Sequence record: NC_054935.2
From: Escherichia phage YUEEL01
Reading direction: 5' to 3' (one strand)
Length of the DNA stretch: 64,000 nt
Of this stretch, positions 12,596 through 36,434 are shown in pieces; positions within the stretch are counted from its first letter, which is position 1; each line of letters starts with the position of its first letter. The translations under genes were made by a program, and so were the position numbers. The notes under the pieces were generated by a model that worked only from the letters and a program-made list of their open reading frames with translations, searched no databases and was not told where the DNA came from.

Positions 12596-15292
12596 ATGAA
12601 AGAATTTTATATCTCTATCGAAACAGTCGGAAATAACATTGTTGAACGTTATATTGATGAAAACGGAAAGGAACGTACTCGTGAAGTAGAATATCTTCCG
12701 ACTATGTTTAGGCATTGTAAGGAAGAGTCAAAGTACAAAGACATCTATGGTAAAAATTGCGCTCCTCAAAAATTTCCATCAATGAAAGATGCTCGAGATT
12801 GGATGAAGCGAATGGAAGACATCGGTCTCGAAGCTCTTGGTATGAACGATTTTAAACTCGCTTATATCAGTGATACGTATGGTTCAGAAATTGTTTATGA
12901 CCGAAAATTTGTTCGTGTAGCTAACTGTGACATTGAGGTTACTGGTGATAAATTTCCTGATCCAATGAAAGCTGAATATGAAATTGATGCTATCACTCAT
13001 TATGATTCAATTGATGATCGTTTTTATGTTTTCGACCTTTTGAATTCAATGTACGGTTCAGTATCAAAATGGGATGCAAAGTTAGCTGCTAAGCTTGACT
13101 GTGAAGGTGGTGATGAAGTTCCTCAAGAAATTCTTGACCGAGTAATTTATATGCCATTTGATAATGAGCGTGATATGCTCATGGAATATATTAATCTCTG
13201 GGAACAGAAACGACCTGCTATTTTTACCGGTTGGAATATTGAGGGATTTGACGTTCCGTATATCATGAATCGTGTTAAAATGGTTCTCGGTGAACGTAGT
13301 ATGAAACGCTTCTCTCCAATCGGTCGAGTAAAATCTAAACTAATTCAAAATATGTACGGTAGCAAAGAAATTTATTCTATTGATGGCGTATCTATTCTTG
13401 ATTATTTAGATTTGTACAAGAAATTCGCTTTTACTAATTTGCCGTCATTCTCTTTGGAATCAGTTGCTCAACATGAAACCAAAAAAGGTAAATTACCGTA
13501 TGATGGTCCTATTAATAAACTTCGTGAGACTAATCATCAACGATACATTAGTTATAACATCATTGACGTAGAATCAGTTCAAGCAATTGATAAAATTCGC
13601 GGGTTTATCGATCTAGTTTTAAGTATGTCTTATTATGCTAAAATGCCTTTTTCTGGTGTAATGAGTCCTATTAAAACTTGGGATGCTATTATTTTTAACT
13701 CACTGAAAGGTGAACATAAGGTTATTCCTCAACAAGGTTCGCACGTTAAACAAAGTTTTCCGGGTGCATTTGTATTTGAACCTAAACCAATTGCTCGTCG
13801 ATATATTATGAGTTTTGACTTGACGTCTCTGTATCCGAGCATTATTCGTCAGGTTAACATTAGTCCTGAGACTATTCGTGGTCAGTTTAAAGTTCATCCA
13901 ATTCATGAATATATCGCAGGAACAGCTCCTAAACCGAGTGATGAATATTCTTGTTCTCCGAATGGATGGATGTATGATAAGCATCAAGAAGGTATCATTC
14001 CAAAGGAAATCGCTAAAGTATTTTTCCAGCGTAAAGATTGGAAAAAGAAAATGTTCGCTGAAGAAATGAATGCCGAAGCTATTAAAAAGATTATTATGAA
14101 AGGCGCAGGGTCTTGTTCAACTAAACCTGAAGTTGAACGATATGTTAAGTTCAGTGATGATTTCTTAAATGAACTATCGAATTACACCGAATCCGTTCTC
14201 AATAGTTTGATTGAAGAATGTGAAAAAGCAGCTACACTTGCTAATACAAATCAGCTGAACCGTAAAATTCTTATTAACAGTCTTTATGGTGCTCTTGGTA
14301 ATATTCATTTCCGTTACTATGATTTGCGAAATGCTACTGCTATCACAATTTTCGGCCAAGTTGGTATTCAGTGGATTGCTCGTAAAATTAATGAATATCT
14401 GAATAAAGTATGCGGAACTAATGGCGAAGATTTCATTGCAGCAGGTGATACTGATTCGGTATATGTTTGTGTAGATAAAGTTATTGAAAAAGTTGGTCTT
14501 GACCGATTCAAAGAGCAGAACGATTTAGTTGAATTCATGAATCAGTTCGGTAAGAAAAAGATGGAACCTATGATTGATGTTGCATATCGTGAGTTATGTG
14601 ATTATATGAATAACCGCGAGCATCTGATGCATATGGACCGTGAAGCTATTTCTTGCCCTCCACTTGGTTCAAAGGGCGTTGGTGGATTTTGGAAAGCGAA
14701 AAAGCGTTATGCTCTGAACGTTTATGATATGGAAGATAAGCGTTTTGCTGAACCACATCTAAAAATCATGGGTATGGAAACTCAGCAGAGTTCAACGCCT
14801 AAAGCGGTCCAAGAAGCTCTCGAAGAAAGTATTCGTCGTATTCTTCAGGAAGGTGAAGAGTCTGTCCAAGAATATTACAAGAACTTCGAGAAAGAATATC
14901 GTCAACTTGACTATAAAGTTATTGCTGAAGTAAAAACTGCGAACGATATAGCGAAATATGATGATAAAGGTTGGCCAGGATTTAAATGTCCGTTCCATAT
15001 TCGTGGTGTGCTAACTTATCGTCGAGCTGTTAGCGGTTTAGGTGTAGCTCCAATTTTGGATGGAAATAAAGTAATGGTTCTTCCATTGCGTGAAGGAAAT
15101 CCATTTGGTGACAAATGCATTGCTTGGCCGTCGGGTACAGAACTTCCAAAAGAAATTCGTTCTGACGTACTGTCTTGGATTGACTACTCAACTTTGTTCC
15201 AAAAATCGTTTGTTAAACCGCTTGCGGGCATGTGTGAATCGGCTGGTATGGACTATGAAGAAAAAGCTTCGTTAGACTTCCTGTTTGGCTGA
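12596..15292 (+). CDS. 43: gp43 DNA polymerase (family B with 3'-5' exonuclease)
   Basis: 898 aa MKEFYISIETVGNNIVERYIDENGKERTREVEYLPTMF..., conserved DTDS motif; uninterrupted. Confidence 0.95.
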   Translation: MKEFYISIETVGNNIVERYIDENGKERTREVEYLPTMFRHCKEESKYKDIYGKNCAPQKFPSMKDARDWMKRMEDIGLEALGMNDFKLAYISDTYGSEIVYDRKFVRVANCDIEVTGDKFPDPMKAEYEIDAITHYDSIDDRFYVFDLLNSMYGSVSKWDAKLAAKLDCEGGDEVPQEILDRVIYMPFDNERDMLMEYINLWEQKRPAIFTGWNIEGFDVPYIMNRVKMVLGERSMKRFSPIGRVKSKLIQNMYGSKEIYSIDGVSILDYLDLYKKFAFTNLPSFSLESVAQHETKKGKLPYDGPINKLRETNHQRYISYNIIDVESVQAIDKIRGFIDLVLSMSYYAKMPFSGVMSPIKTWDAIIFNSLKGEHKVIPQQGSHVKQSFPGAFVFEPKPIARRYIMSFDLTSLYPSIIRQVNISPETIRGQFKVHPIHEYIAGTAPKPSDEYSCSPNGWMYDKHQEGIIPKEIAKVFFQRKDWKKKMFAEEMNAEAIKKIIMKGAGSCSTKPEVERYVKFSDDFLNELSNYTESVLNSLIEECEKAATLANTNQLNRKILINSLYGALGNIHFRYYDLRNATAITIFGQVGIQWIARKINEYLNKVCGTNGEDFIAAGDTDSVYVCVDKVIEKVGLDRFKEQNDLVEFMNQFGKKKMEPMIDVAYRELCDYMNNREHLMHMDREAISCPPLGSKGVGGFWKAKKRYALNVYDMEDKRFAEPHLKIMGMETQQSSTPKAVQEALEESIRRILQEGEESVQEYYKNFEKEYRQLDYKVIAEVKTANDIAKYDDKGWPGFKCPFHIRGVLTYRRAVSGLGVAPILDGNKVMVLPLREGNPFGDKCIAWPSGTELPKEIRSDVLSWIDYSTLFQKSFVKPLAGMCESAGMDYEEKASLDFLFG

Positions 15293-15304: not shown

Positions 15305-15326
15305 AGGGACCTCCGGGTCCCTTTTT
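15305..15326 (+). terminator. intrinsic terminator (7-bp stem, UCCG loop, U5)
   Basis: agggacctccgggtcccttttt after the gene 43 stop. Confidence 0.65.
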
Positions 15327-15408: not shown

Positions 15409-15438
15409 GTTTACAAGAATGTTCTTCCATGGTACTAT
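15409..15438 (+). promoter_or_regulatory. T4-type early promoter
   Basis: gtttac, 18 bp, tactat within tggtactatacaactatcaactac, a box shared with other early promoters in the window. Confidence 0.55.
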
Positions 15439-15475: not shown

Positions 15476-15712
15476 ATGAAAATTGTTATGGGATGCTTAG
15501 CAGTTTGTTTAGTTGCATTAGCAGCAGTTCCATTTGTTAGTGTTGAAAATGATACTCAACCTGTGATTGAATCTAGCACTGTTATTCACACTAATGGTAA
15601 AATATCAGTTAAAATTGATGATAATCTTCATGTGAATACAAATGGATCTTTAGGTGTGCAAATGGGTAATACCTGCATAAGCACTACTGGAGTAATTACT
15701 ACTTGCATTTGA
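15476..15712 (+). CDS. small secreted or membrane protein (N-terminal signal-like segment)
   Basis: MKIVMGCLAVCLVALAAVPFVSVEN...; ATG at 15476 with GGAG SD; the track start at 15419 lies inside the promoter and is rejected. Confidence 0.5.
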   Translation: MKIVMGCLAVCLVALAAVPFVSVENDTQPVIESSTVIHTNGKISVKIDDNLHVNTNGSLGVQMGNTCISTTGVITTCI

Positions 15713-15722
15713 GGAAATTATT

Positions 15723-16103
15723 ATGAAAATCGCTATTTTGGTTATTGCATTAGGTCTTACTGGTTGTGTAGCTCAAGGACCGGCAGTAAATCAGTCTGAT
15801 GTAGGAAAAATTGTAAACTGTTCAAACAAATTTTATAATCCTAATGTCAAGTGTTATAAAGAAGCTCCAAAGCAAACAGTAGAACAAATGCAGGCGAATT
15901 TTGACGAAGCTATTCGTCCAGATGAATCTGCTCAAGCATATCGTAATTCGGATGTAATTACACGCGAAGAAAAAATTGAAAACTACTGCGCAGAACTTTG
16001 GGCAAATTGGGCTAATAATTACCAATGGCGTACAGGTAAAAATGCTCCGATGGAGTATGTAGTGAATTCTTATAATTCATGTGTAAAAAATTTGACTAAG
16101 TGA
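15723..16103 (+). CDS. predicted lipoprotein
   Basis: MKIAILVIALGLTGC: signal peptide with LTGC lipobox; 126 aa; GAGGAAATT SD. Confidence 0.55.
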   Translation: MKIAILVIALGLTGCVAQGPAVNQSDVGKIVNCSNKFYNPNVKCYKEAPKQTVEQMQANFDEAIRPDESAQAYRNSDVITREEKIENYCAELWANWANNYQWRTGKNAPMEYVVNSYNSCVKNLTK

Positions 16104-16110
16104 GGAAAAC

Positions 16111-16362
16111 ATGGAAACTTTAGTAGCAGGTTCAATTTTTATGGTTTTAGTTTCAGGTGTGTTGGCTATTATTATATACATGCTTCCATGGTTTATCGCC
16201 TTGATGCGTGGGTCAAAATCGACAGTAGGAATCTTTTTCACATCTTTACTGTTTAACTGGTCAATTATTGGTTGGTTTATTACATTTATTTGGTCAATTG
16301 CAGGTGAAACTAAAAAGTCTGCGCAGCCAAATCAGGTAATTATCATCAGAGAGAAGGAATGA
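16111..16362 (+). CDS. imm: Imm, immunity to superinfection membrane protein
   Basis: 83 aa METLVAGSIFMVLVSGVLAIIIYMLPWFIALMRGSKST... matches T4 Imm; two TM segments. Confidence 0.85.
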   Translation: METLVAGSIFMVLVSGVLAIIIYMLPWFIALMRGSKSTVGIFFTSLLFNWSIIGWFITFIWSIAGETKKSAQPNQVIIIREKE

Positions 16363-16508
16363 AAAGCAAAATTATAGCAGTGTTGCTTTTAATCTTGATG
16401 GTTATAATAAGTATATACTATAGCGTAACAGTTCCTGCTATGATTCCAACTATTATTTTAGGTTGGGGTTTATTACTGTTACAATTTAAATATGAATGCA
16501 TCAATTGA
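16359..16508 (+). CDS. small hydrophobic membrane protein
   Basis: 49-aa ORF read by eye, MKSKIIAVLLLILMVIISIYY..., ATGA overlap with imm stop. Confidence 0.4.
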   Translation: MKSKIIAVLLLILMVIISIYYSVTVPAMIPTIILGWGLLLLQFKYECIN

Positions 16509-16515
16509 GGTTTAA

Positions 16516-17256
16516 ATGATTAATGACTCTATGACAGTTGAAGAAATCCGTCTTCATTTGGGGCTTGCATTAAAAGAAAAAGATTTCGTAGTTGATAAAA
16601 CTGGCGTTAAAACTATTGAAATTATTGGCGCATCATTTGTAGCAGATGAACCGTTTATTTTTGGCGCTCTTAATGATGAATACATTCAGCGTGAACTTGA
16701 ATGGTATAAATCTAAGAGCTTGTTCGTTAAAGATATTCCGGGTGAAACACCGAAGATTTGGCAGCAGGTAGCATCTTCTAAAGGTGAAATTAACTCGAAT
16801 TATGGCTGGGCTATCTGGTCAGAAGATAACTATGCCCAGTATGATATGTGTTTAGCTGAACTTGGTCAAAATCCTGATTCTCGACGTGGTATCATGATTT
16901 ATACTCGTCCATCCATGCAATTTGACTACAATAAAGATGGTATGTCAGATTTCATGTGTACTAATACAGTACAGTACCTGATTCGTGATAAGAAAGTCAA
17001 TGCAGTAGTAAGCATGCGCTCAAATGACGTGGTCTTCGGATTCCGTAATGATTATGCATGGCAAAAATACGTATTAGATAAATTAGTATCTGATTTGAAT
17101 GCAGGCGATTCAACTCGTCAGTATAAAGCAGGTTCTATTATATGGAATGTTGGAAGTCTTCATGTATATTCTCGTCATTTTTACTTGGTTGATCATTGGT
17201 GGAATACTGGCGAAACTCATATTGTGAAAAAAGATTATAACGGTGAGTGGAAATGA
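16516..17256 (+). CDS. 42: gp42 dCMP hydroxymethylase
   Basis: 246 aa with thymidylate-synthase-like core (FMCTNTVQYLIRDKKVNAVVSMRSNDVVFGF); matches T4 gp42. Confidence 0.92.
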   Translation: MINDSMTVEEIRLHLGLALKEKDFVVDKTGVKTIEIIGASFVADEPFIFGALNDEYIQRELEWYKSKSLFVKDIPGETPKIWQQVASSKGEINSNYGWAIWSEDNYAQYDMCLAELGQNPDSRRGIMIYTRPSMQFDYNKDGMSDFMCTNTVQYLIRDKKVNAVVSMRSNDVVFGFRNDYAWQKYVLDKLVSDLNAGDSTRQYKAGSIIWNVGSLHVYSRHFYLVDHWWNTGETHIVKKDYNGEWK

Positions 17257-18095
17257 TTCAATTCGTAATTCCAAGCTATCAACGTGTAGGGGCAGTTTCT
17301 GCCCTTGATATGTTTCCGACTGATTATGAACCTCATATTGTAGTGCGTGAACACGAAGAAAAAGCTTATTATGATGCCTATGGGTCTAGAGCTAAAATTA
17401 TAACTATTCCTGATGATGTAAACGGAATTGCCGGTACTCGTAAAGCAATTACTGATATGTATGCAGGTCAACGAATCTGGATGATTGACGATGATACTAC
17501 TATCCGTATGAGTTCAATACGAAAGAGAGACGATAAACGGCGCGTAGATAAAATTAATCAATTAACTCGTGAACAGTTCTATGAATTGATTCAATATGTT
17601 GAGGATGCCATGGATTGCGGATATTATCATGGCCATGCTCGTCTACCAATTTTTAAAATTACTTCATCTTGGGGTAATTATCGTGAAAATTCATATGGAT
17701 TCACGAATACATGGTATGACCTCGGAAAACTTACGACAGAACAAATTGGGTATGGAAAAATTGATTTATGCGAAGATATGTATGCATTTCTCAATTTAAT
17801 TAATCAAGGTTATCCGCATTTGGCCTTGTTCAAATATCTAGTTGTATCTGGAAAAGCACAAGCTCCTGGCGGGTGTAGTTCAATTCGTAGTAATTCTAAA
17901 CATAATAGAGCGCTTGAGCAAATCAATAGAGAGTTTCCAGAGCAAGCTCGTTGGAAAACTTCTAATATTGAAAAACGAAAATCGTTGGGTGAAGAAGACG
18001 AGCCATTAAAGGTTCTTCGCATGTGCGTTTCGCGTAAAGAAAAATCAGAAGCATTTCATAAGTTTAATGCTATTCATCCAATAGCAGTTGATTAA
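17253..18095 (+). CDS. putative GT-A-fold glycosyltransferase occupying the T4 beta-glucosyltransferase slot
   Basis: N-terminal FVIPSYQR (GT2-like first strand) and WMIDDD (DxD motif); no similarity to T4 beta-gt as I remember it; ATG at 17253 overlaps the gene 42 stop, track start is an upstream GTG. Confidence 0.55.
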   Translation: MIQFVIPSYQRVGAVSALDMFPTDYEPHIVVREHEEKAYYDAYGSRAKIITIPDDVNGIAGTRKAITDMYAGQRIWMIDDDTTIRMSSIRKRDDKRRVDKINQLTREQFYELIQYVEDAMDCGYYHGHARLPIFKITSSWGNYRENSYGFTNTWYDLGKLTTEQIGYGKIDLCEDMYAFLNLINQGYPHLALFKYLVVSGKAQAPGGCSSIRSNSKHNRALEQINREFPEQARWKTSNIEKRKSLGEEDEPLKVLRMCVSRKEKSEAFHKFNAIHPIAVD

Positions 18096-21688: not shown

Positions 21689-21982
21689 ATGAAAAAATTT
21701 ATCTTTGCTGCAATTTTTGCTTTATCTTCTTGCGCTGCTCAGCCTGCTATGGCGGGTTATGACAAAGATTTGTGCGAATGGTCTATGACTGCAGATCAGA
21801 CTGAAGTTGAAATTCAAATTGAAGCGGATATTATGAATATCGTTGAACGTGATCGTCCTGAAATGAAAGCTGAAGTGCAAAAACAACTTAAATCTGGTGG
21901 TGTAATGCAGTATAATTATGTTCTGTATTGCGATAAAAACTTTAATAATAAAAATATCATCGCTGAAGTGGTAGGTGAGTAA
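21689..21982 (+). CDS. sp: Spackle-like periplasmic protein (superinfection exclusion / lysozyme inhibitor)
   Basis: 97 aa with cleavable signal peptide MKKFIFAAIFALSSCAAQPAMA; size and position match T4 sp. Confidence 0.65.
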   Translation: MKKFIFAAIFALSSCAAQPAMAGYDKDLCEWSMTADQTEVEIQIEADIMNIVERDRPEMKAEVQKQLKSGGVMQYNYVLYCDKNFNNKNIIAEVVGE

Positions 21983-36173: not shown

Positions 36174-36434
36174 ATGAAATATGTTAATCGTTCTATCGCA
36201 GCATTAGTATTAGCAGTGTCTTTAGTAGGATGTACTGATGCTGATAATGCAACCAAAGTTTTGTCTTCAAGTGGGTTTACTAATATTGAAATCACTGGAT
36301 ATAACTGGTTCGGTTGCTCTGAAAATGATTTCCAACACACTGGATTTCGTGCTGTTGGACCTACTGGGCAGAAAGTAGAAGGAACAGTATGTTCTGGTCT
36401 ATTCTTCAAGGATTCGACTATCCGTTTTAAATAA
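36174..36434 (+). CDS. predicted lipoprotein
   Basis: MKYVNRSIAALVLAVSLVGC: signal peptide with LVGC lipobox; 86 aa. Confidence 0.5.
   Translation: MKYVNRSIAALVLAVSLVGCTDADNATKVLSSSGFTNIEITGYNWFGCSENDFQHTGFRAVGPTGQKVEGTVCSGLFFKDSTIRFK

Follow-up and report, generated by a model that had tools for sequence, protein, structure and literature searches.

The lipobox gene imm.1 and its Tequatrovirus-restricted neighbour beside the superinfection immunity gene imm of T4-like phages

Textbooks attribute superinfection exclusion in phage T4 to two genes, imm and sp; how Imm works, by binding the tape-measure protein, was described only in 2026, in a preprint. The gene next to imm, imm.1, has carried the label 'hypothetical membrane protein' since 1989. 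Lipoproteins are known from other exclusion systems, as exemplified by llp of T5, which adjoins pb5, and by the exclusion lipoproteins of siphoviruses, which are encoded downstream of gpJ (PMC9586334). Another exclusion lipoprotein is Ltp of phage TP-J34, whose reported target, according to PMC3952083 and the title of its reference Bebeacua 2013, is the tape-measure protein. The locus considered here lies within a stretch of 64,000 nucleotides (nt) from Escherichia phage YUEEL01 (sequence record NC_054935.2), hereafter the window, where two open reading frames (ORFs) on the plus strand, ORF-A (15476-15712, 78 amino acids (aa)) and ORF-B (15723-16103, 126 aa), precede imm. A sequence-only reading of this DNA had taken both for envelope-targeted proteins that could extend imm into an exclusion or receptor-masking module. 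Comparative analysis identifies ORF-B as T4 imm.1, a member of a predicted lipoprotein family found beside imm across T4-like phages, while ORF-A appears to be a separate accessory gene.

ORF-B is the orthologue of T4 imm.1 (UniProt P18057), an assignment drawn from profile matches, alignments, the AlphaFold2 (AF2) model and the lipobox. The protein is 97% identical to its T4 counterpart (NP_049661, 125 aa, lipobox LAGC) and matches the entire PF17578 (DUF5481) profile (positions 1-103 of 103, 3.7e-71, 236.5 bits against a cut-off of 27) as well as PHROG 1754 (3.2e-43). The lipoprotein left unidentified in the sequence-only reading is accordingly not a new gene; it is the already annotated imm.1, which the T4 record M37159 (1989-90) names 'ORF 42.2', with imm as 'ORF 42.1'. 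The two proteins agree in length to within one residue and share the position of the lipobox, the promoter leader and the site directly upstream of imm, whereas they differ in the lipobox itself (LAGC in T4, LTGC here) and in that ORF-A precedes only the window gene. Within Tequatrovirus, the identity of imm.1 reaches 95% or more in 496 of the 499 records (T2 96.8%, T4 97.6%), whose hosts span seven genera (Escherichia, Shigella, Yersinia, Salmonella, Citrobacter, Serratia and Hafnia), and its ratio of nonsynonymous to synonymous substitution rates (dN/dS) is 0.07-0.09. In T4, imm.1 belongs to the early RNA and early protein class, the same as sp (PMC9697503 supplement), and its CRISPRi-ART knockdown was scored 'Not Fit' (-0.77, p 0.98; PMC11879866 supplement). 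It is thus expressed, yet dispensable in single-phage laboratory growth.

Database names for this gene vary. T4 imm.1 (NC_000866 T4p046, L002 4637-5014) and the RefSeq records of T2, RB18 and ECO4 carry the name 'iduronate sulfatase', while many GenBank records use 'immunity protein'. As a Pfam scan of imm.1 returned DUF5481 only and no sulfatase domain, both names appear to be annotation artefacts without evidential basis.

The N-terminus of ORF-B reads MKIAILVIALGLTGC, with the LTGC lipobox noticed earlier, Cys15 encoded at 15765-15767 and Val at the +2 position. This arrangement fits the PS51257-type rule, i.e., a basic n-region, an uncharged h-region and a lipobox [LVI][ASTVI][GAS]C with the Cys at position 15-35. 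Only four of the 183 window ORFs of at least 60 aa satisfy the rule, one of them through the signal peptide of sp. In a comparison set of 20 family members with mutual identities of only 18-45%, the lipobox is kept in 19, and taken with its rarity in the window this places the predicted lipobox of ORF-B beyond chance. The residue at +2 is V, G, A, S or Q in the family and Asp in none of its members. The mature proteins hold an even number of Cys, two or four, of which two are invariant, corresponding to C89 and C120 in window numbering. The AF2 model of Imm.1 places these two residues in a confident helical hairpin (81-125, predicted local distance difference test score (pLDDT) ~88), and this helical C-terminal domain is preceded by a low-confidence tether of ~35 residues.

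The breadth of the family emerged from genomic neighbourhoods as well as from sequence searches. Word-indexed protein searches with imm.1 and with its Mosigvirus homologue returned three clusters each, and an exhaustive profile search with the imm.1 family returned six representative clusters among 1.8 billion proteins. The neighbourhoods of imm in other genera revealed lipoproteins of 139-175 aa that match PHROG 1754 or a newly built family profile. PHROG 1754 is matched in Gelderlandvirus (5e-46), T4-like Klebsiella phages (2e-15), Gaprivervirus SP18 (5e-47) and Dhakavirus IME08 (4.5e-52). The family profile found the lipoproteins of Muldoonvirus PS2, Kanagawavirus CIP9 and Winklervirus Gravdalen, and further members occur in the metagenomic lineages P0007 and P0008. 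Judged by these profile matches, the family is wider than Pfam shows and spans most enterobacterial T4-like genera. ORF-B, ORF-A and a 49-aa ORF downstream of imm all belong to known sequence families (PHROG 1754, 4189 and 3610, respectively), and none is new as sequence. The literature searched does not cover the breadth of the lipoprotein family, the uniform lipoprotein character of its members, their joint moves with imm or the natural carriers that lack Imm.

The PHROG 1754 lipoprotein gene adjoins imm in at least nine T4-like lineages. It directly precedes imm in Tequatrovirus, Mosigvirus, Gelderlandvirus, Klebsiella phages, Muldoonvirus and the lineages P0005, P0007 and P0008, and directly follows it in Dhakavirus, Gaprivervirus (after a 47-aa ORF) and P0021; start and stop codons of the two genes overlap in Muldoonvirus PS2 (ATGA) and in P0021. 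The imm.1-imm pair is single-copy yet is found in three contexts, namely between genes 43 and 42, between dmd and sp in Mosigvirus, where imm.1, imm and sp are contiguous, and next to frd.3 in the metagenomic P0005, where the order is frd.3, imm.1, imm and a 49-aa ORF. The pair has stayed adjacent through two relocations and one inversion of order. In an IMG/VR sample of 80 Imm loci, found with an Imm alignment, a family lipoprotein lies within ~400 bp on the same strand in 23 (14 upstream, 9 downstream), and these are exactly the T4-like imm loci (23/23), while none of the 57 non-T4-like Imm loci carries one. In a phage database, 999 records contain Imm, against 654, 132 and 148 for the three lipoprotein subfamilies. 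The conserved adjacency across relocations supports a functional link. T4-like Imm was always sampled with the lipoprotein, while the reverse does not hold; the association is best read as a real one in which neither partner would strictly need the other.

A general theme of Imm with any lipoprotein was also considered and rejected, as an adjacent lipobox ORF occurs at only 4-5 of the 57 non-T4-like Imm loci. Unrelated lipobox ORFs beside Imm-domain genes of such contigs (L059 2542-2940, L072 3299-3724, L080 2701-2973 and L092 3147-3380) may be convergent or due to chance.

The comparison makes imm.1 the obvious candidate for a third, periplasmic component of the classical exclusion system, because the lipoprotein family is broad, relocates with imm and accompanies every T4-like imm sampled. 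With a probability of about 40%, Imm.1 may be an accessory, non-obligate part of the T-even early envelope-protection or superinfection-exclusion set that acts in the periplasm. Directly readable for ORF-B are an early promoter, a transcription unit shared with imm and a canonical lipobox. By the Sec/Lgt/LspA/Lnt/Lol rules, Imm.1 would be exported via Sec and lipidated on Cys15, and since Asp occurs at +2 in none of the family members, the E. coli Lol rule predicts that it ends up in the outer membrane, facing the periplasm. The flexible tether of ~35 residues would hold a small, disulfide-stapled helical domain in the periplasm. There, Imm.1 could act on the incoming injection apparatus, i.e., the tail-tube tip or the tape-measure protein, or on its passage, alongside Imm, which binds gp29 at the inner membrane, and Sp, which inhibits the gp5 lysozyme in the periplasm.

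Several observations weigh against this proposal. The complete genome of Kanagawavirus CIP9 has no Imm (best E 0.064, filters off) while carrying the lipoprotein (3e-30) and the tiny downstream ORF (4e-26). Likewise, imm is absent from the sequenced stretches of Winklervirus Gravdalen, with the order gene 43, lipoprotein, SIS-domain protein and 47-aa ORF, and of the metagenomic P0023, with the order gene 43, lipoprotein and uvsX. Expressed on its own from a plasmid, Imm excludes T4 and binds the tape-measure protein gp29, which co-purifies with it, without any partner (bioRxiv 10.64898/2026.03.06.709160). As T4-like genomes are broadly syntenic, part of the imm.1-imm adjacency may simply be inherited. 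Library and PDB searches found no sequence or fold similarity between imm.1 and characterised exclusion proteins, and the literature search returned no experiment on imm.1 and no reported function. An exclusion gene could score 'Not Fit' on knockdown, as T4 imm.1 did, but the score gives no positive evidence for one. Finally, in the metagenomic P0005 (L008 718-1086), Phe replaces the lipid-attachment Cys and is followed by an AHA/S signal-peptidase-I-type site, which would make this homologue a soluble periplasmic version, unless the single 1.5-kb contig contains a sequencing error. The carriers of the lipoprotein without Imm, together with the activity of Imm alone, show that any link is non-obligate. 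Of the extended module suggested earlier, the early expression and predicted envelope targeting of both ORFs stand, as does a linkage of ORF-B to imm that reaches beyond this genome, while an obligate unit does not. The phages with the lipoprotein and without Imm are clean natural controls, and absent any phenotype imm.1 would be an ordinary accessory early gene. The comparative results turn what had been a guess into a well-posed question, without themselves establishing the function.

While the exclusion proposal is preferred, it is quite possible, if somewhat less probable, that the adjacency reflects inherited synteny. Imm.1, perhaps with the tiny membrane ORF, would then be an early envelope protein with an Imm-independent function, placed beside imm because both belonged to an ancestral early block downstream of gene 43, and its target could be a conserved host component such as outer membrane-peptidoglycan links, an envelope-stress sensor or a protease. 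The persistence of the lipoprotein and tiny ORF in CIP9, the Gravdalen and P0023 stretches and the self-sufficiency of Imm all fit this explanation, as does the single lipoprotein site, just after gene 43, shared by most genera; the invariance of imm.1 across host genera suits a target conserved among hosts no less than one in the phage. Shared ancestry accounts less readily for a pair that moved together twice, to the dmd-sp and frd.3 contexts, and remained neighbours even where their order is inverted and their codons overlap, or for a lipoprotein at every T4-like imm locus sampled.

A more far-reaching version of the exclusion proposal, which is rather doubtful at present, unites three proteins, namely the lipoprotein of PHROG 1754, Imm and the hairpin membrane protein of 47-49 aa, in an exclusion system that spans the envelope and is conserved among T4-like phages. 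In the periplasm, the helical domain tethered to the outer membrane would catch the incoming tail-tube tip or tape-measure protein or lead it astray, Imm would block its insertion into the inner membrane, and ORF-A, whose mature part has an 8-residue beta-repeat pattern faintly recalling spike or fibre shafts, would be an add-on that tunes specificity within Tequatrovirus. If true, such a system would be the Gram-negative counterpart of Ltp. Like Imm.1, a predicted lipoprotein that is helical in the model, Ltp is tethered to the membrane by lipid; it acts post-adsorption, and its reported target, the tape-measure protein (per the sources named above), is also that of the neighbour of Imm.1, Imm. 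However, Ltp, encoded by a temperate phage that infects a Gram-positive host, is anchored in the cytoplasmic membrane, and no homology with Imm.1 is detectable. The fold of Ltp, a lipoprotein of the injection-blocking type, is helical, with helix-turn-helix-type repeats. T4 Sp, which is also helical, resembles Imm.1 as predicted in being a small, early, exported periplasmic protein of the same early RNA and protein class, encoded contiguously with imm.1-imm in Mosigvirus. It differs in being soluble and cleaved by signal peptidase I, whereas Imm.1 is a predicted lipoprotein, and the PDB searches with Imm.1 did not return Sp.

The receptor-masking model of the sequence-only reading, taken here to mean that Imm.1 or ORF-A would bind the phage's outer-membrane receptor from the periplasmic side and mask it in the manner of Llp or Cor, has become improbable. 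Its consequence would be blocked adsorption of secondary phages, and of progeny to cell debris. Imm.1 does share with Llp of T5 and Cor of T1, phi80 and N15 a small size and early expression and, by prediction, disulfide-forming Cys and a location at the periplasmic face of the outer membrane. However, imm.1 lies between genes 43 and 42, whereas llp and the siphovirus exclusion lipoproteins adjoin a receptor-binding gene (PMC9586334). Unlike Llp and Cor, Imm.1 does not vary with host or receptor, and its near-invariance across host genera, T2 and T4 included, disfavours a receptor-specific blocker. The porins themselves differ, as T2 uses FadL/OmpF, T4 OmpC and T6 Tsx. The neighbour of imm.1 moreover encodes a post-adsorption exclusion protein, and classical T-even exclusion by Imm and Sp acts after adsorption. 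Pfam and PDB searches revealed no similarity of imm.1 to Llp or Cor, by sequence or by fold, and the analogy with Llp is not supported. PADLOC, NCBIfam and PDB sequence searches with ORF-A, imm.1 and the tiny ORF returned nothing informative, and the second BASEL paper makes no mention of Tequatrovirus exclusion lipoproteins.

A role in lysis control, with Imm.1 as a spanin-like or lysis-inhibition outer-membrane lipoprotein and ORF-A as an RI-like periplasmic signal receiver, is most unlikely: an outer-membrane lipoprotein with a small membrane protein superficially resembles o-/i-spanin pairs, and ORF-A shares with the antiholin RI its small size, a hydrophobic segment at the N-terminus and a periplasmic domain, yet imm.1 has an early promoter and belongs to the early protein class, is flanked by gene 43, imm and gene 42 and not by t, rI, rIII or pseT.2/pseT.3, matches no lysis family in PHROG, Pfam or NCBIfam, and shows no fitness effect upon knockdown.

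ORF-A, matched by phrog_4189 alone, encodes a small protein predicted to be exported or membrane-anchored. Its N-terminus is MKIVMGCLAVCLVALAAVPF, and a GGAG Shine-Dalgarno sequence lies 8 nt upstream of the start. The signal-like segment described earlier is present: it consists of MK, IVMGCLAVCLVAL and then ALA/AV, its core is hydrophobic (Kyte-Doolittle maximum 2.8 over 15 residues), candidate cleavage sites of the AXA type follow residues 16/17, and it satisfies the Sec n/h/c-region rule with small residues at -3 and -1. This N-terminus reads as a Sec signal peptide or a signal-anchor. The mature part of ~60 residues is beta-rich and ends in C-x9-C-I, with the C-terminal C67 and C77 conserved. 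In tblastn searches, ORF-A is present in 323 phage records, all Tequatrovirus and one per genome (~65% of Tequatrovirus genomes), invariably between gene 43 and imm.1 and with 76-100% identity among the matches listed; in the IMG/VR scan it occurs solely on the T-even contigs. T4 lacks it: the two genomes are collinear through the promoter leader to ATGAAAAT, after which T4 runs straight into imm.1, and the difference amounts to 247 bp flanked by the 8-nt repeat ATGAAAAT, which opens both ORFs. ORF-A evolves faster than imm.1, with a dN/dS of 0.37-0.40 and a dS ~3 times that of imm.1.

This faster evolution, the absence of ORF-A from T4 and ~35% of Tequatroviruses, and the lack of any homologue found outside the genus would suit a chance ORF in a variable spacer, without function, yet such an origin is hardly credible for an ORF that remains unbroken in 323 records, always at the same place, has a dN/dS below 1, mostly conservative substitutions and four conserved Cys, keeps its frame through a duplication in PBM-1, and combines a good Shine-Dalgarno sequence with a distance of 10 nt to imm.1. 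By the usual sequence criteria, ORF-A is a real gene, probably a separate accessory one that is confined to Tequatrovirus, encodes a small exported beta-rich protein and shares the promoter of imm.1, and it does not hold as a conserved member of a module with imm. Together, ORF-A and imm.1 are a real, ordinary and already catalogued early envelope gene pair.

A longer, 97-aa version of ORF-A starting at 15419 was rejected as it would begin within the promoter (15409-15438), ahead of the point where transcription is expected to start; the GenBank annotation of phage 107 agrees with the start at 15476. Neither does ORF-A qualify as a second lipoprotein, as the Cys of its VMGC motif (Cys7) is too near the N-terminus for the lipobox rule. 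Residues 38-77 (15587-15709) show an 8-residue periodicity (HTNGKISV/KIDDNLHV/NTNGSLGV/QMGNTCIS/TTGVITTC), but a resemblance to fibre-shaft or spike beta-helix repeats was dismissed as not significant (E 0.3-4.6) and is at most a lead; the weak phmmer matches to the fibre shaft of adenovirus and to the beta-helix of a gp5-like central spike had E values of 2-5. In PBM-1 (L005 826-1083), the duplication is an in-frame one of 21 nt, or 7 aa, in the ORF-A signal peptide. Shigella phage CT01 (L006 609-1446) is rearranged, with a promoter and a truncated 5' end of imm.1 followed by an ORF-A fragment, a second promoter leader and a full imm.1. The interval between gene 43 and imm.1 is recombination-prone, as these two phages illustrate.

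The order of early promoter, ORF-A, ORF-B, imm and a tiny membrane ORF is as described in the sequence-only reading. Gene 43 ends at 15292 and is followed by an intrinsic terminator on the plus strand (15305-15322), a GC-rich stem of 7 bp with a T run that is annotated as the same element in the T4 record M37159. The T4-type early promoter (15409-15438, plus strand) reads GTTTAC-N14-atggTActaT (TTTACA-17-TACTAT) and differs from that of T4 by 1 nt; in Mosigvirus, too, the annotation places such an early promoter in front of the imm.1 homologue. The gene imm itself (16111-16362, plus strand) encodes the superinfection immunity inner-membrane protein of 83 aa, which matches phrog_1039 and PF14373 (7.7e-16, 58.2 bits, cut-off 27.9) and is 98.8% identical to T4 Imm. 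It is followed by the 49-aa two-helix, or hairpin, membrane ORF (16359-16508, plus strand), which overlaps the imm stop codon as ATGA, and by gene 42 (16516-17256, plus strand), encoding deoxycytidylate (dCMP) hydroxymethylase, the next gene in the same transcription unit. The gaps measure 10 nt between ORF-A and ORF-B, 7 nt between ORF-B and imm and 7 nt between the 49-aa ORF and gene 42. A scan from the promoter to gene 42 found no strong terminator-like site, its sole match being a weak 5-bp stem within ORF-A (15512-15525), and ORF-A through gene 42 are therefore read as one early unit.

The 47-49-aa ORF (phrog_3610; 5e-26 in the window) has the conserved pattern ...MIPT.ILGW...L.LQ..YEC.N and is kept in several genera. 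It is intact, yet unannotated, in T4 RefSeq NC_000866 (L002 4229-4378, minus strand) and Kanagawavirus CIP9 (91748-91891), and is present without imm in CIP9 and Gravdalen. The gene sp (spackle, phrog_1586) lies at 21689-21982 on the plus strand, 5.3 kb downstream of imm, while in Mosigvirus sp (L003 3237-3530) directly follows imm.1-imm.

The window phage is a T2/T6-type Tequatrovirus, and over the 1.2-kb region it shares 98-98.6% identity with many T-even isolates. Overlapping the end of gene 42 is a TAGT-family glycosyltransferase gene of 282 aa (17247-18095, plus strand; phrog_842, beta-glucosyl-HMC-alpha-glucosyltransferase), where T4 has beta-gt; both segA and beta-gt are absent at this site of the window. 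By this gene, the phage is of the T2/T6 type and not the T4 type in DNA glucosylation. A second small lipobox ORF of the window, encoding 86 aa (36174-36434, plus strand; MKYVNRSIAALVLAVSLVGC; phrog_902), is located just upstream of gene 39, which encodes a topoisomerase subunit.

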